Source: a virus
Length of the DNA stretch: 64,000 bases
Reading direction: 5' to 3' (one strand)
Virus record (IMG/VR): IMGVR_UViG_3300017991_000049
Location: 1 to 64,000 of that record
The notes beneath the pieces are model-generated. The model saw only the letters and a list, made by a program, of their open reading frames with translations, did not search any database and was not told the origin of the DNA. Position numbers and translations under genes: made by a program. Each line of letters opens with the position of its first letter. Positions within the stretch are counted from its first letter, which is position 1. This document shows positions 24,614 through 37,567 of this stretch, in pieces.

Positions 24614-25399
24614 TCATATTCTTATCAGACTGTTCGGGAAACGTCTACGCCTAGCACAGAGCCATTTGGCGTCATTGGAGCAGTCGTTGGCGATGATCGG
24701 CACCTCGTGCTCCACGATATACTCGAAGATCTTCACAGTGATTTCGCGACTCTCGCGCGGCGATAGCAGCTGCAAAGGCTCGAAGAAATAGCAGTCTCCT
24801 ACGAGTTCACGTGCGCGCTGACACCGTACGTACAGCTCCGCCAGGTTGATATGCGAGACCTGCTTGGCGACCTCGTGGATGAGTCCCTTGGTGATCAGAT
24901 TGTCGTAAACCTCTGGTATGGAAGGGACTTCGACCGTGTCGGCCCACTCCAATTTGGACATGTCCCACGTGGCTGCCAGGTTCAACCGAATCTCGTTGAT
25001 ACCCGCAGCGCGCAGGCGCTCCGCGGTCTCCTTGTTCAGCCGCAGGCCGTTGGTATAGCACCACTGCCAATCGACATCGAGCTGCTCAGCAATCTCGACG
25101 ATCTTGTCGATGTACAGCAACGGCTCACCGCCGGAGTAGCTTACGCCGCGGATATCGTACTGGTAGATCTGCGATACAATCCGATCGAGATGGCCGGGCG
25201 TGTCCAGCCGATTGCGCTCTGGACGGCTGCAGAACCAGCAGTCAGCGTTGCAGCGCTGTCCCATGAACAGGCATAGCCACGTACCATCCTTGCAGCGCTG
25301 GCATCCTTTGGACAGGTCATGAATTTCGCCGTTCGTGACAGTGCCATCTGAGATGTGGACACCAAGCTTCTCGTAGCGGTCTCGATGTTCGGGTAGCAT
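24614..25399 (-). CDS. radical SAM enzyme (QueE / activating-enzyme-like)
   Basis: 261 aa. CNADCWFC (CxxxCxxC) cluster and SGGEPLL glycine-rich SAM motif. Confidence 0.8.
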   Translation of the reverse strand: MLPEHRDRYEKLGVHISDGTVTNGEIHDLSKGCQRCKDGTWLCLFMGQRCNADCWFCSRPERNRLDTPGHLDRIVSQIYQYDIRGVSYSGGEPLLYIDKIVEIAEQLDVDWQWCYTNGLRLNKETAERLRAAGINEIRLNLAATWDMSKLEWADTVEVPSIPEVYDNLITKGLIHEVAKQVSHINLAELYVRCQRARELVGDCYFFEPLQLLSPRESREITVKIFEYIVEHEVPIIANDCSNDAKWLCARRRRFPNSLIRI

Positions 25400-30516: not shown

Positions 30517-30714
30517 TCACCGACCCTTTTTCGTCAAGGGCTCGGGCTTCTTGGCCTTCTTCTTCGGTACACTCGCTTTGACGACGTCCTTGCCGCACAC
30601 CGTGCAGCGATGGCCAGCGCCAGTAGCGGTTACAGTCTCGTTGCAAACTCGTCTCTTGTGCCCATACTGCGCGTCCTGGTACGGATGGTCGCACAGACAT
30701 TCCTTGATTGGCAT
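30517..30714 (-). CDS. small Zn-ribbon protein (about 65 aa)
   Basis: Start at MPIKECLCDHPYQ. C-x-C...H...C-x2-C pattern. Lys-rich tail. Confidence 0.45.
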   Translation of the reverse strand: MPIKECLCDHPYQDAQYGHKRRVCNETVTATGAGHRCTVCGKDVVKASVPKKKAKKPEPLTKKGR

Positions 30715-30822
30715 GTGTTTCCTTTCGGTGTCATACGAAAACAGCGCAGCGGAAACTGAGCTCCGCTGCGCTGTTAAGTGTCTCAAACAAAGCTGGCGGA
30801 GGTTAGCCCGCCAGCATTATGC

Positions 30823-31485
30823 TTAGACGGGCGTCTCGGTGATCCGGTTGGGCGCATTTTCTGGCCCGCGCGGTTCCATCGAGGCTTCGATCTGCGCCAC
30901 GTCGACGCGGTTGTCGTTGCCTGCGAAGGTCATCAGGTACGCGAGGATCTGTTGGTACAGACCGTAAACGCGCAGCGAGTCGTGTCGGGTGATGAACCGC
31001 GAACGCTCGCGCGAGTTGAGTCGCGTCCAGGTTACGATCACTGTGTCGACGGCCGACAACAGGATCCGGCCGTTGCCGCTCATGTTGAGCTGGCTGTTCA
31101 CCGGGATGTCGACGTCCTGGCCCGAGAAGTCCCAAGGGAGTTGGTACATCTGCGTGGCCGGCATCTGGATGTCGTCGCCACCAAACGGATTGGCAGCATC
31201 GGTGATGTCCGCAGTTGCGTCGATCGCCGTAGCGATCTTGTCGCCGAGATCAGCACCGTCTGGGTTATGAGTAACCCGGCGACGCCAGCGATCAGCGTTG
31301 ACAAGCAGCTGCAGAAAATGGTCTCTCGACGGGTCGTCGAGACCGCCTCGGTCGCGGAGATCTTCACTGTGGACAATCTCCGAGCGCAGCAACATCAACG
31401 GCTGCAGACCGGCGGCGATGTGATGGTTTCGGCATTCCGTGATTACGTTACGGAATTGTTCGACGCCAGGGTCACCTACTGGCAT
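30823..31485 (-). CDS. hypothetical protein (220 aa)
   Basis: Overlaps the stop of the upstream protease gene by 10 nt (operon-like). No motif recognised. Confidence 0.5.
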   Translation of the reverse strand: MPVGDPGVEQFRNVITECRNHHIAAGLQPLMLLRSEIVHSEDLRDRGGLDDPSRDHFLQLLVNADRWRRRVTHNPDGADLGDKIATAIDATADITDAANPFGGDDIQMPATQMYQLPWDFSGQDVDIPVNSQLNMSGNGRILLSAVDTVIVTWTRLNSRERSRFITRHDSLRVYGLYQQILAYLMTFAGNDNRVDVAQIEASMEPRGPENAPNRITETPV

Positions 31486-33245
31486 GACTGGTCTCCTTTG
31501 GTGGGAGTTGAATGATAGGTTGCTGCCGGCGCCATTTCATTGAAGCGTCTCAGCAGCGTGTCCTTCATTATACGCGCCCAGTCATTCTCAGGTCCAGAGG
31601 GCTCTTGGTCAATTTTCTTGTCAAGTTCGTCGAGAGTAAGTCGGCCGATAAGTGCATCAAGTATCGGCGAACGTCCTTCGAGCTCCGAAAGTCGTATAAA
31701 TTCCTGTGCTTCCGAGATGTCTCGGGGCACTGTGTCGTGGGTGGGAAACGTATCGGGCTCGGAAGCCCCTCCTTGCCCAGGCGGCGTCACGGGCGGGTCA
31801 ACAGGCGGTACGACAGGCGGATCTGTGGGCGGTTCGATGGGCGTAACAGGCGGCAAATCAGGCAGTTTTGGCGCAGGCTTGCCGCGGAACCAGCAGAACG
31901 CCTTGTAGATACCAAAGCCGAGCGCCAGCAATCCGCCACCACCTGCCGATCCTGTCAGTAGCCACATGAGCGCCTGCTGCACCGACGGCTTTACCATATC
32001 CCAGTTTGACGGTTCGTCCGGCTCGGTTACCGTGGGCGGCGGATCGTTATTTGTCGGCGGCTCTACAGGCGGCGTAACCGGAGGGTCAACTGGCGGCGTA
32101 ACCGGAGGGTCAACTGGCGGCGTAACTGGGGGTTGCACAGGTGGTTCGACCGGCGGCTGTACAGGTGGCGTAACCGGAGGCGTAACTGGCGGTTCAACAG
32201 GAGGTTCAACAGGCGGTTCAACCGGTGGCACCACTGGCGGCACTACAGGCGGTGGCTCAGCTGGCGGCGCAACTGGTGGCGTCACTGGTGGCACTACAGG
32301 CGGTGGCTCGACCGGCGGTGTCACCGGAGGCGTGACAGGCGGCTGTACAGGTGGCGTAACCGGAGGCTCGACCGGGGGCGTAACCGGAGGCGTGACAGGT
32401 GGCGTAACTGGGGGCACGACAGGCGGCTGTACAGGCGGCTGTATTGGCACCAGTGGCGGCCGCGGCTTTGGCGGCTGCGGGTACGGCGGGAGAATGAACT
32501 TCAACAGCGCACGCACACGCGGAAAGTAAGGTCCGCAGCAGCAGTTACCGTCAGTGCCGGTGATCAACCCTACGACTTCACCGCGCGACGTGTAGATCGG
32601 TCCGCCGCTCATGCCGCTGATTGCCGGCCCTCGGAACTCGATGACCGAGAGCGTGCGCCCTTGATCGAACGATAGCCATTTGCTGAACGTCCCCTTTGTG
32701 ACGCGGTATGTAGTATTCATCGCCCAGCCGGACGCCCAATATATCTCGCCTTGCCTGGGCGGGCCTTTTGCGAAGCGCACCGGCTTGATACCCGGATCGT
32801 CGATCTCGACGACGGCTACATCATAGAGATGGTTGTAGCGCAGCATTCGTGCCTTGAGCATCTTGCCGTTGATCAGCGTGACCGTCACAACGGCCCCAGG
32901 CTTGTAGCCATGGGCGCAGGTGATCACGTGCGCTTTACCGTCCTTCTGTGCTGCAATAAAGCCGCTGCCGGCCAGTTCGCCGAATGCTACCTTGACCACC
33001 TGTTCGCAGGGTGGTGCTGCTGGAAGTGCTGGCGGCGCTGGTGCGGCCCAGGACTGCGATGGCGATGCGCGCCATTGGGTTTCGTGCGGCAGCTGCATCA
33101 GCAGCCCGCGGTAATCCTGCCGGCTAGGCGAATTGCGCTCTTCCCAGGGAACTACTTCATAGATGTCTACAGAACGGGGCTGGCCCGCAGCTACGGTTGG
33201 CAGCAGTAGGCATGCCAACAGGCAGAAAAGCGTACAGCATCTCAT
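31476..33245 (-). CDS. secreted trypsin-like (S1) serine protease with Pro/Thr-rich repeat linker, TM helix and C-terminal domain
   Basis: Start at MRCCTLFCLLACLLLPTVAAG (signal peptide); the upstream part of the ORF overlaps tRNA-Ile. Catalytic triad context VITCAHG (His), YDVAVVEID (Asp), GMSGGPIY (Ser). About 130 residues of (PPV[TEQ]) repeats. TM LMWLLTGSAGGGGLLALGFGIYKAFCWF. Confidence 0.7.
   Translation of the reverse strand: MRCCTLFCLLACLLLPTVAAGQPRSVDIYEVVPWEERNSPSRQDYRGLLMQLPHETQWRASPSQSWAAPAPPALPAAPPCEQVVKVAFGELAGSGFIAAQKDGKAHVITCAHGYKPGAVVTVTLINGKMLKARMLRYNHLYDVAVVEIDDPGIKPVRFAKGPPRQGEIYWASGWAMNTTYRVTKGTFSKWLSFDQGRTLSVIEFRGPAISGMSGGPIYTSRGEVVGLITGTDGNCCCGPYFPRVRALLKFILPPYPQPPKPRPPLVPIQPPVQPPVVPPVTPPVTPPVTPPVEPPVTPPVQPPVTPPVTPPVEPPPVVPPVTPPVAPPAEPPPVVPPVVPPVEPPVEPPVEPPVTPPVTPPVQPPVEPPVQPPVTPPVDPPVTPPVDPPVTPPVEPPTNNDPPPTVTEPDEPSNWDMVKPSVQQALMWLLTGSAGGGGLLALGFGIYKAFCWFRGKPAPKLPDLPPVTPIEPPTDPPVVPPVDPPVTPPGQGGASEPDTFPTHDTVPRDISEAQEFIRLSELEGRSPILDALIGRLTLDELDKKIDQEPSGPENDWARIMKDTLLRRFNEMAPAATYHSTPTKGDQSCQ
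31990..32470. repeat. degenerate 12-nt tandem DNA repeats (GGCGGTGTAACC-like) encoding the (PPVT/PPVE)n linker
   Basis: Seen directly inside the protease CDS. The Gly-rich ORFs on the opposite strand are artefacts of this repeat. Confidence 0.8.
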
Positions 33246-33324
33246 CGGGGACTCCTTTGCTGAGAGACGTGCATATTCTCTCATCAGACACCGACGGAGT
33301 GGCGCTGTCAAGATCCTTGGGAAG

Positions 33325-33396
33325 TGGTAGCCCTGTGAGTCGAACACAGCACAGCGCGGTTATCAGCCGTGCTTGGGCAACCGGCCCTCGACTACC
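33325..33396 (-). tRNA. tRNA-Ile (GAT)
   Basis: Acceptor GGUAGUC/GGCUACC. Anticodon loop CUGAUAA with a 4/5 stem. T-arm CUGUGUUCGACUCACAG. Confidence 0.65.
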
Positions 33397-33464
33397 ATGG
33401 CCCTGGGCCCGGAGGCCCAGGGAGGACTTTCCATTATTTGGGATTGTCCGTTTCTCGTCCAGAC

Positions 33465-34493: not shown

Positions 34494-34784
34494 CTACCCG
34501 CGATCTTTGTCGTCGTCAAGCGTCTTTCGGGCAGATTTGGGCACCATAGCCATGAAATTCTCGATGCGCCCGAGTATGCCTTTGATATGGCCAGCCTGCT
34601 CGAGCGTGACATTGTGGATGGTCTCCCAGCGTGCGATGCCACGCAGCTCCTTAACGGCGTTCATCGACTCGTAGACGAATCTGTCGGCCTCCTTCTCGAT
34701 AGGGATATAGGCCAGCAAGGATTCGAGATCGTCGAGTTTTTGTAGGGCTACGGCGCACAGCTTGGCCATTTTCTTGGCATTCAT
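34494..34784 (-). CDS. hypothetical protein (96 aa)
   Basis: ORF; start overlaps the stop of the upstream gene by 4 nt. Confidence 0.5.
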   Translation of the reverse strand: MNAKKMAKLCAVALQKLDDLESLLAYIPIEKEADRFVYESMNAVKELRGIARWETIHNVTLEQAGHIKGILGRIENFMAMVPKSARKTLDDDKDRG

Positions 34785-37567
34785 CGCTCACCTCCAATCA
34801 CCGTGAGTTGGCGTCGGGAAGAACGACATCGTTCGATTTGCTTATTCCACCAAGAGTCTATGATGAACCACCCAATGTCTCCATTATATTCGCATTCGCA
34901 GTCGAGCGCATTGCCCATTTTGAATGCGTCGGTGACCTTGCCCGGGTCCGCAAGCGCTAAATTTCGTTTGAGAAGCGCGTGGTCCAGGACCGTTCGGGAC
35001 AGGAAAACACTAGGAGCGCGGTCCGCCTCGGCTATCCGTATGATCGTTGGCATCTTGTACTTATGTGCTTCTTCGGCGTGGCAGAAGCGCACCGCGCCGT
35101 CTTCGATGAAGCTGTACAGCAGTTGCACAAGCTGGCCGGCCCGACACGTTTCTGAGTCGGAACCGTCGTCGATCAGACGCACACCTTCGTGTACCACCTG
35201 CGGATCACCCAGCCTGGACATCATCTCGGTCATGCTATCAGCGACACCATAAATGTGCTCGCGACACCCGGCCAGGCGCAACTTGTCCACGCACAACCAC
35301 TTGAGCCACAGCGGCAATACCAGCGGGCCGTACATACTGATTTCGGGACCAGGCTGTATCGGACTTTCGTCCTGGATGAAGCGCCAGGCGTCCAGCGTAC
35401 CCGCCAGCCGCGCCCATGGCTCCGTCATATGGACGATCGTATTGCGCGTGTAGTCGCCGTTGAACAGTGTGCTCATCAGGCGCCGCGACGCTGCGCTGGC
35501 GTCGAGGTTGAGGATCAGTGGCCAGTTGTGCTGCTGCAGGATATCCTCGATCTTGTGGGCCGTACGGGTGCTATCCATGCTCTTGTGCCCACCGATACGA
35601 AACTCTTGACAACCACTTGCCCGGGCGCTCGCACGCCCAACCATCAGCGCTCCGTGTCCAATCAGTCCGAGTCCGGATATTCTCCGGCCCGTCGCGGGTG
35701 CTACTATGTTTGCACCAAGGCAGACCGTGGACGCCCAGAACAAGCGGTTTGCAGGCGTATCGCGCAATAACGGCACGATTTTCGATGGGGTAGCGGGAGC
35801 GCCCAGGTTTTTGCCTGGCGCCCACTCATCAACGACGTGTGAGGGATCGTCGACGACTTCGCCACCTACGTGTATCGAAAACTGCGGTAGCGCGAAACAA
35901 GAATCCTTCGGTTTCCATCCGAATTTTCCGTCCTCCTTGATTACTTCTGGCTCGTGGAATTGCCGCGCGATGTCTAGCAGATATGCGTTCCACCCGCGCT
36001 TAACAACCACCAGCTTACCTGCGGCGGCGAGCAGCTTCTTGCGAAGCCAAACGCCTGGGTTTTTGTCGATGGTGTCCATTGCTTCCTGGAATGGATACTC
36101 ATCACCCTTATATAGAATGCGGCCGTTGCAGTACACATCAGCGTCCGGGTCGTCAGTGCATAACACCTTCTCGATCCTGATGATCGCGTTGGAGATGCAC
36201 TCGCTCGCCTCAGACTTGACCGACATGTACCAACCTTCGTCCGACTCTATAACCTCTTTGCCGTTGATCCGTGCTGTACCAACCAGCCGGACCCTACGTT
36301 TGTTACGATCGATTAGCTGTTTGATATCGTCTGCGCACGTGGCGACGAACGACTGCATTTGCTCTGGGGCAATCTCCAACCGGCCCAGCAGGGCCACAGC
36401 CTTGTCTTCTGGCAGCGTGCGCAAGGCGTGCTCCAGCGAGGCTGTCCAGTGTACGGCGTTCTTGTGAATCAAGTTCAGCCATACGTGCGGAGGCTTACGT
36501 CCCAGATATGTAGGTGTCTTGCTGATGCAGATCATCCCGTCGGCACGGGCTGCCATGTTGAACAGGTCTGCCGTCAGCGTAGCGCCCCAGAACGTGAAGT
36601 GCTTGTCCGGCCGCGTACGCCAGATGTCGTGTGCGACCAGCTCGCAGAGGCGTGTGATGCGCTTCACCTTGGCGTTGTACGTCCCCACCACAGGTAGGGG
36701 GAGATCTGACTCCCGCATGTGCCGTGCCTGCAGCTTCAGCGCATGGACCGGGTCGTTGAACACGAAGATACGGTCACCGAAACGATCCCGGTGTGCAGTC
36801 TGCGAATCCAGCACGTCGTACATACACAGACCAGACTCCACTTGCGGCCTGTTCGACCCCTCGCCGTCGATAATGTGGTAGGCGTAGTCCGTGTCGCGCC
36901 TGCCCTGCCGCCCGATGAATAGCCAGCCCGAGCATTGCCCGGGCAGCGTATGGAACGGAATGGTAAGCACGTCACGCCAGCCTTTGCCCTTGAAGAATCG
37001 TGCGCCCTTCTTCATCTTGTGCCAGTCGTCGTGCGGTTTGAAGAAGGTCTGGTAGACCCTGAGCCGGTCAGCCCCGCCCATAAACCGGCCCATACGTTTC
37101 GGCCAGTAGGGCTTCAGCTGGTCCGCTGGCAGCCCTGTTTGCTGCAATATGAAGTTGACCTTCACGTGCCCCTCGCTGATAGCCTCGCGAGCATCGTCGA
37201 GCAGCTTGACGCAGTTCTCCTGCATCCCGAGCACCTGCTTCTCGTACTTCGCCACGAACTCTGGCGCAGACCGTTCTTCAGGGATCGTACAGCCCGCGGT
37301 CACAAGCTTGCGCACCGCCAGCTGTATGGAGCAGTCCCAGTGGCTTGCTGCCAGTGATATCATGTCCCCTTTGGAATGACAGTCGGGACAGTGGTGCCAA
37401 TTACCGCCGAACCTGGTATCATTGAATACAGTCAACCGGCGCCCGTGGCACAACGGGCATTCGGTCAACAGCGGTATAGGTCCCTCGCGCGTCGTGACGC
37501 CTAATAGCGGCAGCACTTGATGGTAGTCGACGTGGCTGTTTAGCGATCTGCGCTTCTGGGACATCAC
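34781..37567 (-). CDS. large protein (928 aa) with N-terminal CHC2-like zinc finger (possible primase-like replication protein)
   Basis: CPLCHG...HHCPDCH near the N-terminus resembles primase-type zinc ribbons. No Walker motif recognised. Confidence 0.5.
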   Translation of the reverse strand: MMSQKRRSLNSHVDYHQVLPLLGVTTREGPIPLLTECPLCHGRRLTVFNDTRFGGNWHHCPDCHSKGDMISLAASHWDCSIQLAVRKLVTAGCTIPEERSAPEFVAKYEKQVLGMQENCVKLLDDAREAISEGHVKVNFILQQTGLPADQLKPYWPKRMGRFMGGADRLRVYQTFFKPHDDWHKMKKGARFFKGKGWRDVLTIPFHTLPGQCSGWLFIGRQGRRDTDYAYHIIDGEGSNRPQVESGLCMYDVLDSQTAHRDRFGDRIFVFNDPVHALKLQARHMRESDLPLPVVGTYNAKVKRITRLCELVAHDIWRTRPDKHFTFWGATLTADLFNMAARADGMICISKTPTYLGRKPPHVWLNLIHKNAVHWTASLEHALRTLPEDKAVALLGRLEIAPEQMQSFVATCADDIKQLIDRNKRRVRLVGTARINGKEVIESDEGWYMSVKSEASECISNAIIRIEKVLCTDDPDADVYCNGRILYKGDEYPFQEAMDTIDKNPGVWLRKKLLAAAGKLVVVKRGWNAYLLDIARQFHEPEVIKEDGKFGWKPKDSCFALPQFSIHVGGEVVDDPSHVVDEWAPGKNLGAPATPSKIVPLLRDTPANRLFWASTVCLGANIVAPATGRRISGLGLIGHGALMVGRASARASGCQEFRIGGHKSMDSTRTAHKIEDILQQHNWPLILNLDASAASRRLMSTLFNGDYTRNTIVHMTEPWARLAGTLDAWRFIQDESPIQPGPEISMYGPLVLPLWLKWLCVDKLRLAGCREHIYGVADSMTEMMSRLGDPQVVHEGVRLIDDGSDSETCRAGQLVQLLYSFIEDGAVRFCHAEEAHKYKMPTIIRIAEADRAPSVFLSRTVLDHALLKRNLALADPGKVTDAFKMGNALDCECEYNGDIGWFIIDSWWNKQIERCRSSRRQLTVIGGER

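Follow-up and report, generated by a model that had tools for sequence, protein, structure and literature searches.

Lysis by phages does not always run through spanins: ~15% of phages lack them and use other outer-membrane disruptors (10.1101/515445), and among the described lysis factors LysB is enzymatic (PMC5707550), while LysZ is membrane-anchored, with a helical body and a Pro-rich linker (10.1101/2025.06.24.661397). A bacterial parallel is MarP (Rv3671c), an S1 protease tethered to the membrane on its periplasmic side in Mycobacterium tuberculosis, for which the NlpC/P60 hydrolase RipA is a substrate (PMC6628586). Here we consider a pair of adjacent genes on the minus strand of a 64,000-nucleotide stretch of viral DNA (IMG/VR record IMGVR_UViG_3300017991_000049, positions 1 to 64,000; hereafter the window, meaning the whole stretch), one for an S1 protease with a Pro-rich stalk, a transmembrane (TM) helix and a cytoplasmic tail, the other for a 220-residue protein named ORF220 after its open reading frame (ORF). 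Signals read from the sequence give good support to an exported, inner-membrane-anchored and probably active S1 protease, with a rigid spacer and a cytoplasmic tail coupled to ORF220. To judge from gene order and conservation, the two genes form a conserved phage two-gene module, ORF220 being seen only beside tail-bearing proteases. An earlier, sequence-only reading had described the protease, whose observed features are all confirmed here, and missed this conserved downstream partner. A literature search returned no description of a protease–stalk–TM–tail family. What is new relative to the searched libraries and literature is the stalk/TM/three-helix-tail architecture, the obligate conserved partner and the spread across uncultivated phages; the protease fold is ordinary. 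The two genes and the parts of the protease are as follows.

31476..33245, minus strand: protease coding sequence, 589 amino acids (aa) plus stop (signal peptide, S1 protease, PPVx stalk, TM, PPVx tract, three-helix tail)
33186..33245, minus strand: predicted signal peptide, residues 1-20 (MRCCTLFCLLACLLLPTVAA), called from a Kyte-Doolittle hydropathy of 2.2, a short basic n-region and small residues at -3/-1
33006..33185, minus strand: mature N-terminal region, residues 21-80, poorly conserved, with a Pro/Ala-rich stretch and then Cys80 at its end
32481..33005, minus strand: S1/Trypsin_2 domain with C-terminal helix and PPY motif, residues 81-255 (Pfam, HtrA1 alignment, family alignment)
32910-32912, 32820-32822 and 32607-32609, minus strand: catalytic codons for His112, Asp142 and Ser213
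32052..32480, minus strand: Pro-rich stalk, residues 256-398, ~33 PPVx units (composition, Tandem Repeats Finder)
32103..32126, minus strand: polymorphic 24-nt unit GTTACGCCGCCAGTTGACCCTCCG (VTPPVDPP), present twice in the window and in locus L111, once in L110 and L112
31887..32051, minus strand: acidic juxtamembrane segment (399-420) and Gly-rich TM region (421-453), then K/R (hydropathy, AlphaFold helices)
31779..31886, minus strand: second PPVx tract, residues 454-489 (36 residues), on the predicted cytoplasmic side (repeat and composition analysis)
31479..31778, minus strand: predicted C-terminal cytoplasmic domain, residues 490-589, with a three-helix core at ~504-565 (AlphaFold with alignment)
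30823..31485, minus strand: ORF220 partner gene, 220 aa, whose start overlaps the protease stop by 10 nt, without signal peptide or TM

Among the described systems, the HtrA family (DegP/DegQ/DegS and HtrA1; S1C) shares with the phage protein the chymotrypsin fold and the His-Asp-Ser triad, HtrA1 being the best solved-structure match (E=3e-6). HtrA proteases are extracytoplasmic, and DegS is anchored in the inner membrane, as the phage protease is predicted to be. However, HtrA proteins carry one or two C-terminal PDZ domains, none of which was found by Pfam at E<=1 in the phage protease, and curated libraries assign the protease no further than its superfamily, all NCBIfam scores falling far below their cutoffs (MarP, NF033740, 49 bits against 250; DegP, TIGR02037, 43 against 416; DegS, 23 against 408-423). 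The anchor of DegS, moreover, is N-terminal, whereas that of the phage protease is C-terminal and lies beyond a long stalk; the cytoplasmic tail and the partner gene are further differences. TonB-type spacers offer a parallel of another kind, in that an inner-membrane anchor and a rigid Pro-rich segment carry a functional domain across the periplasm, as in the phage stalk; they differ in their N-terminal anchor, (Glu-Pro)/(Lys-Pro) repeats, non-enzymatic C-terminal domain and use of ExbBD, and no sequence relationship was found. MarP, the best NCBIfam match, is likewise a membrane-tethered periplasmic S1 protease and acts on an NlpC/P60 hydrolase (PMC6628586), and related phage loci have an NlpC/P60-like gene beside the protease. 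Yet MarP has four N-terminal TM helices and no Pro-rich stalk, tail domain or partner, whereas the N-terminus of the phage protein holds a signal peptide only. The spanins (Rz/Rz1 and the u-spanin), disruptin, LysB and LysZ are all envelope-acting and encoded in lysis cassettes, and the spanins and LysZ are membrane-anchored and reach into the envelope; but none is a protease, their topologies are different, they have no partner of the ORF220 type, and no homology to them was detected. An i-spanin has an N-terminal TM, a periplasmic coiled coil and a lipoprotein partner, and a u-spanin an N-terminal lipobox with a C-terminal TM. Neither phage protein has the marks of a spanin, since the N-terminus of the protease is of the signal-peptidase-I type without a canonical lipobox and ORF220 has neither signal nor lipobox. 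Finally, RsgI9 (PDB 7SJY, E=4.8e-5) is a membrane protein whose extracytoplasmic S1C-type domain is coupled to a cytoplasmic partner, but in the opposite topology and through a SigI-binding anti-sigma domain, and neither ORF220 nor the three-helix tail showed any relationship to it.

The evidence for the two-gene module lies in the strict company that the tail and ORF220 keep, the chief new finding of this analysis. Homologues of ORF220, with 28-83% identity, occur in 16 other loci (L004, L091-L095, L096-L103, L104 and L107), each time directly 3′ of a tail-bearing protease gene, that is, in 17 of 17 cases counting the window; at L104 a contig edge leaves only the last residues of the tail domain before the homologue. 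In L001 and L084, where the protease is of a collagen type and lacks TM and tail, there is no ORF220. The tail domain itself was recovered by iterative search in 17 of 153 family sequences. Identity to the closest relative, L096, falls from 83% in the partner through 54% in the tail to 45% in the protease domain, and the linker cannot be aligned. ORF220 homologues are highly conserved, with many invariant Arg residues; searches of Pfam (E<=1), PHROGs, PADLOC, NCBIfam, PDB sequences and GenBank phages gave no match to ORF220. The sequence-only reading had proposed a C-terminal domain, and a conserved domain of ~70 residues (~505-575) does exist there, with three predicted helices (model residues 15-27, 32-52 and 57-76) in an AlphaFold model made with the alignment, at a mean predicted local distance difference test score (pLDDT) of 75. 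Searched against the PDB with Foldseek, this model gave no match at E<=0.001 and resembles a generic helical bundle. The four features that define the unnamed family are all found in the window, namely a protease core with the helix and PPY motif, a TM with basic residues, the three-helix tail and an adjacent ORF220. As tail and partner strictly co-occur, we infer that they bind each other. A small gene that we take to be DUF1353-like follows the partner in three loci (L097 1648-2085, L098 7292-7666 and L099 4065-4481), and in one family member, P0016, what is presumably the same kind of domain is fused N-terminally to the protease; gene and fusion suggest a further functional link.

The protease domain is recognised with confidence. 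Pfam PF13365 (Trypsin_2; MEROPS clan PA, S1 serine peptidases) matches residues 93-227 at E=1.5e-17 and 65.1 bits against a cutoff of 27.6, covering the profile in full (1-144), and there is a match to PHROG 9683, “protease” (1e-9). The His, Asp and Ser motifs named in the sequence-only reading stand, as VITCAH, DVAVVEID and GMSGGP align with the HtrA1 triad motifs TNAH, DIALIKID and GNSGGP, and none of H112, D142 and S213 varies across the 19 members of a family alignment; a failure of the catalytic residues to align, which had been named as grounds for rejecting the protease, was thus not seen. The epithet “trypsin-like” holds for the fold and fails for the specificity pocket, where Pro207 and Ala208, 5-6 positions before Ser213, stand in place of the expected Asp.

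A HMMER scan of 1.84 billion cluster representatives returned 362 proteins at E<=1e-10, four of them at E<=1e-30 (50%-identity clusters), and 150 of the 362 were examined individually, the tallies below being over 151 members and the tail search over 153 sequences. The common plan runs from a signal peptide, usually followed by QCxxGxC, through the S1 protease and a C-terminal helix (...PRVRxxLRFLLPPYPNRPG) to a Pro-rich or coiled-coil spacer, and Cys residues are conserved in the relatives. Two endings predominate: either the chain lacks a TM and closes with collagen-like GXY repeats and a small C-terminal domain, or it continues into a TM, a basic run and a cytoplasmic domain. By hydropathy and motif rules, ~133 of 151 members (~88%) have an N-terminal signal, ~83 a C-side TM and ~46 collagen repeats. 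The best family match, P0005, is 45% identical and has the same full architecture, including the C-terminal domain. From protease to TM the spacer is mostly 80-160 aa in the relatives and, at the long end, 168 aa, nearly all of it PPVx, in the window protein. These comparisons place the protease in a large, as yet unnamed family of metagenomic and viral proteins. The layout had been called unusual for a phage protein; it is instead the norm in a family of 362 50%-identity clusters with true members on IMG/VR viral contigs. A pattern-based scan of 185,579 species genomes, with narrow patterns, gave generic Trypsin_2 proteases only (24-35% identity), and within the reach of those patterns the family is likely to be phage-specific. 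At third codon positions the G+C content (GC3) is 0.69 in the protease and 0.74 in ORF220, near the bottom of the 0.71-0.80 spanned by five other phage genes. Recent acquisition from a host, raised beforehand as a possible objection, is therefore not borne out, given a GC3 near that of the phage genes and no close cellular relative in the narrow pattern scan. In a word-indexed protein search the protease part as query gave one real relative; the tail gave none, and the tail alignment short fragments only. GenBank phages held no relative of the protease, only two weak Listeria matches, and nucleotide searches matched tRNAs only. L003, the sole IMG/VR match with the whole protein as query, was discarded as repeat-driven.

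Between protease and membrane lies the stalk (residues ~256-398), with Pro at 50%, Val at 24%, Thr at 9% and no Ser, in units of PPVT (12), PPVE (7), PPVQ (4) and others. Tandem Repeats Finder reports periods of 12, 24, 48 and 72 nt over 32068-32443, at 65-81% match. The Pro-Val-Thr/Glu repeat encoded by degenerate 12-nt DNA repeats and the second Pro-rich tract are therefore both present, as first described; the label “mucin-like” does not fit, for this is not a Ser/Thr-rich tract of the kind that takes dense O-glycosylation. By composition the stalk looks like a polyproline-II spacer, nearer to TonB-type Pro-rich spacers than to a mucin tract. The suggestion that the DNA repeat is a hotspot of length variation was borne out where the repeat is still perfect: in four independent assemblies of this phage (the window, L110, L111 and L112) the 1.77-kb gene is nucleotide-identical save for the gain or loss of one 24-nt unit, giving alleles of 589 aa (window and L111) and 581 aa (L110 and L112). 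In the longer allele this unit is a perfect tandem duplicate, which makes a 35-nt exact internal repeat, and two k=31 Logan contigs begin within it, presumably because the exact repeat exceeds k=31. Neighbouring 12-nt units are only 65% identical, and the tract has a GC3 of 0.52 against 0.69-0.80 for other genes, which shows that most of the array is old, with its synonymous sites diversified. Homologues, too, differ most in the spacer, which varies in length as well as in composition. Opposite the repeat, on the plus strand, lies a 187-aa Gly-rich ORF (31966-32529; GGSTGGVTGG...), most likely no gene, as it mirrors the CCN-rich coding strand; the same CCN-rich strand accounts for a local GC rise and a GC-skew flip at 30-34 kb.

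The signal peptide and TM calls draw on hydropathy, charge rules and family conservation. The signal peptide named in the sequence-only reading is again predicted, over residues 1-20, with candidate cleavage after VAA (before G) or after AAG (before Q). A lipoprotein signal at LLAC (residues 9-12) was considered and rejected, because the Cys stands too near the N-terminus and has no counterpart in the homologues. The QCxxGxC motif of the homologues is absent from residues 21-80 of the window protein. The internal TM helix is likewise supported, by a moderate Kyte-Doolittle hydropathy of 1.38 over residues 426-444, by its flanking charges, by its conservation in homologues and by predicted helices at 414-430 and 436-453 in a single-sequence AlphaFold model of the full protein, which at pLDDT 44.5 was used solely for the helices near the TM. 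Acidic residues on the N-side and K/R on the C-side fit an N-out/C-in orientation; the homologues show a TM followed by a poly-Arg run, and basic residues follow the TM in the window protein. The earlier picture of an exported, membrane-anchored and catalytically plausible S1 protease, predicted to lie on the envelope side of the infected-cell membrane, thus gains support.

Four signals flank the pair.

33252..33257, minus strand: Shine-Dalgarno sequence AAGGAG, read off the sequence, 6 nt before the ATG at 33245
33324..33396, minus strand: tRNA-Ile (GAT) (ARAGORN), directly upstream of the protease gene, overlapping the alternative GTG start at 33347
33433..33461, minus strand: promoter-like site TGGACG-17-AATAAT (consensus scan 9/12, pattern match only), upstream of tRNA-Ile and the protease gene
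30792..30815, minus strand: terminator-like hairpin with a 9-bp stem (7 GC pairs) and a T-rich tail, 8 nt past ORF220 (pattern match only)

In the ORF list the protease reading frame spans 31476..33347 on the minus strand and opens at GTG. Of the two starts the ATG at 33245 is preferred, as it has the AAGGAG before it and the GTG form would run into tRNA-Ile; with 589 or 581 aa called for this phage in public assemblies, the coordinates 31476-33245 and the length of 589 aa given in the sequence-only reading are retained as the best model. The tRNA-Ile is less certain than most of its array, as it is missing from the Rfam gathering-threshold tRNA matches. The promoter-like site is a possible start of the transcription unit, and the hairpin is likely to end the protease–ORF220 two-gene unit. 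Just past that hairpin, on the minus strand, lies a small Zn-ribbon ORF with a Lys-rich tail (30517-30786; 65 aa in public calls), whose resemblance to a regulator Zn-ribbon upstream of the module in other loci is not significant (E=0.38).

What might such a pair do? We tentatively favour a role in late envelope-directed proteolysis, within or assisting host lysis, for a predicted type-I inner-membrane protease and ORF220. In this mechanism, Sec would export the N-terminal part of the protease protein, its signal peptide being removed, and the S1 protease, of HtrA-like fold without PDZ, would sit catalytically competent in the periplasm. The ~140-residue PPVx stalk, if a polyproline-II helix, would extend up to ~40 nm, enough to reach or cross the periplasm; the single TM helix would anchor the protein, leaving the second PPVx tract and the three-helix domain in the cytoplasm, where the tail would bind ORF220 and so couple a cytoplasmic component to the periplasmic protease. 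The protease may then cut the protein ties between outer membrane and wall or, in a second version, process a wall hydrolase, its timing or activity being set from the cytoplasm via ORF220. The stalk would serve as a spacer whose length drifts as repeat units are gained and lost.

Lysis-tied proteolysis is favoured because of the lysis-cassette-like context in smaller relatives, the periplasm-spanning design and the precedents of enzymatic or stalked factors that are not spanins, to which MarP with its target RipA adds a further precedent. Seven viral contigs from a clade of smaller relatives (L091, L092, L094, L095, L104, L107 and L004) share a consensus block, not every gene being present in every locus, in the order helix-turn-helix (HTH)/Zn-ribbon, NlpC/P60-like, protease, partner, small TM with coiled coil, ParB-like, ATPase (phrog_11143) and large terminase (TerL). 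In the PDB, a profile of the ~200-aa NlpC/P60-like protein matches two permuted NlpC/P60 enzymes best, 3KW0 (E=0.015) and YiiX (E=0.85), and the small protein after the partner is 83-95 aa long, with an N-terminal TM and a coiled coil. An NlpC/P60-like gene also stands immediately 5′ of the protease in L096 and L101, and in L100 two small TM proteins are encoded within 1.4 kb downstream. In L084 a collagen-type protease lies downstream of tail genes and ahead of two small TM ORFs, and at L001 a related NlpC/P60-like gene occurs together with TM proteins and with pectate-lyase-like and GDSL-like genes. The spot upstream of the terminase is the usual place of lysis genes in lambdoid genomes. By its gene content, the block looks like an unconventional lysis cassette without a recognisable spanin; a search near the related modules for lipobox o-spanin candidates by a simple regular expression, a weak negative, found none. 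More doubtful is the bolder proposition that the pair is an unrecognised envelope-breaching or lysis-control system in its own right, doing the job of a spanin, disruptin or LysB. On this view the stalk would be a molecular ruler that holds the protease out across the periplasm, there to cut protein links between the outer layers or to activate a wall hydrolase, and the protease would be armed or timed from the cytoplasm by the partner bound to its tail.

Several considerations weigh against a lysis role. First, the role of the pair is drawn from gene neighbourhoods and precedents, and within the 64-kb window none of the block's lysis-like neighbour genes was found and no holin-, endolysin- or spanin-like gene adjoins the pair, which stands as an island in a tRNA array. 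Second, the NlpC/P60 assignment is weak at the E values given above, the related L001 protein has no Pfam call, the pre-terminase position is only suggestive, and small TM proteins are common in phage genomes. Third, a lysis enzyme has no obvious need of a strongly conserved cytoplasmic partner, and the contact between tail and ORF220 is drawn from co-occurrence alone. Fourth, the TM helix of the window protein is only moderately hydrophobic, and its predicted topology follows from simple sequence rules. Lastly, a diderm host envelope is hinted at by nothing but a GT9-like gene.

A live but less likely rival is superinfection exclusion, or a remodelling of the envelope. Here the protease would degrade periplasmic receptor or transport parts or the ejection proteins of incoming phages, with ORF220 as an accessory or effector. 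The extracytoplasmic part evolves fast (30-45% identity) and the partner is conserved (63-83%), as expected for a conflict surface, and the stalk is polymorphic in length; at least one carrier, L092, is temperate (integrase), and the pair in the window resembles a self-contained insert, bracketed by tRNAs and with promoter-like and terminator-like sites of its own. In PADLOC-DB v2, however, the protease domain alone resembles RT-Protease_XI, LmuA and Avs1b (E 7e-8 to 6e-4), with no match for ORF220 and no complete system, and the recurrent siting beside NlpC/P60-like and small TM genes upstream of the terminase is left unexplained. We know of no exclusion system built on an S1 protease, which also counts against exclusion.

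Anti-sigma-like signalling across the membrane, in which the ectodomain would sense or cleave an envelope signal and the tail would sequester and then free ORF220 as a regulator or effector, is also a live rival, of somewhat lower probability. It would suit the strict co-occurrence of tail and ORF220, the nature of a ~220-aa, cytoplasmic, highly conserved partner with many invariant Arg residues, and the match of the protease domain to the RsgI9 ectodomain (7sjy), a precedent for an S1C-type membrane protein with a cytoplasmic partner. Yet the topology is reversed with respect to known anti-sigma factors, the C-terminus and not the N-terminus being inside; ORF220 has no Sigma70, HTH or other Pfam match at E<=1 and no PDB sequence match, and the tail has no PDB fold match; and a fully conserved triad suggests real proteolysis over sensing alone.

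It is very improbable that the protein is a host-derived periplasmic quality-control protease of the HtrA/DegS type, an auxiliary gene for envelope health in a long jumbo-phage infection. HtrA1, DegQ, DegS, MucD and MarP are indeed its best-scoring solved or curated relatives, but it lacks a PDZ domain and falls far below the NCBIfam cutoff for DegP, its closest relatives are metagenomic or viral, the pattern-limited scan of species genomes gave generic proteases only, its GC3 is near that of other phage genes, and the phage-specific partner would be unexplained. Hardly any credence can be given to the sequence-only reading's alternative of an enzyme associated with the virion and digesting the envelope of the host on entry, for although TM-less collagen relatives in L084 and L001 adjoin tail-fibre-like, pectate-lyase-like and GDSL-like genes, and collagen-like repeats are common in tail fibres, the predicted cleavable signal peptide, stop-transfer TM and partner-coupled cytoplasmic tail argue for the host inner membrane, tailed-phage virions assemble in the cytoplasm, where an exported membrane protein is not expected, and no structural genes flank the protease in the window.

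The genome around the pair belongs to a phage, as identified by a gpA-type large terminase at 472-2367 (phrog_675, 4e-57), and the 50,697 GenBank phage records held no close relative of the window. Because the exact ORF220 protein sits on public contigs of up to 226,656 bp, the phage is a jumbo phage; L110 (ENA ERZ27256796 k141_2629452, 226,517 bp) is the same phage, and several JGI, ENA and Logan samples contain related fragments. ARAGORN finds 39 tRNAs at 3162-34479 of the window, all on the minus strand and covering most amino acids, of which 31 pass the Rfam gathering threshold, and the protease–partner pair lies within this array. Also on the minus strand are envelope and sugar genes (57517-59526, 23499-24575 and 24614-25399), comprising a fusion of GT9 heptosyltransferase-like and GT2 parts, a NodZ-like fucosyltransferase and a radical SAM protein. 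A lipopolysaccharide-bearing (diderm) host is hinted at by the GT9 heptosyltransferase-like gene alone, the TerL relatives, from Vibrio, Salmonella and Bacillus phages at 22-33% identity, being uninformative on the host.

Three further minus-strand genes of the window may be recorded. An 845-aa ORF (19617-22154) carries a major vault protein shoulder domain (PF11978, 7e-23) and a vault repeat (PF17795, 4e-9); nothing relevant on vault proteins in phage genomes was found in the literature, and a homologue in a phage seems unusual. At 54288-56030 lies a Ro60/TROVE and vWA protein (TROVE 1e-39, Ro60 vWA 3e-52, phrog_850); Rfam at the gathering threshold reported tRNAs only in the window, with no Y-RNA-like family. 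A 928-aa ORF (34781-37567) has an N-terminal CxxC...CxxC zinc-finger motif and no significant family match.

The module defines two unnamed conserved families absent from the searched curated libraries, the three-helix tail and the 220-aa partner, which travel together across diverse uncultivated phages and present targets for structural and functional work. The PPVx stalk is a natural spacer that changes by whole repeat units within one phage population, which makes the importance of stalk length testable. Should the pair act in lysis, phages would be seen to have a further way of breaching the outer layers of the envelope, one with a proteolytic step under control from the cytoplasm, and such a role could help to account for phages without a recognisable spanin.

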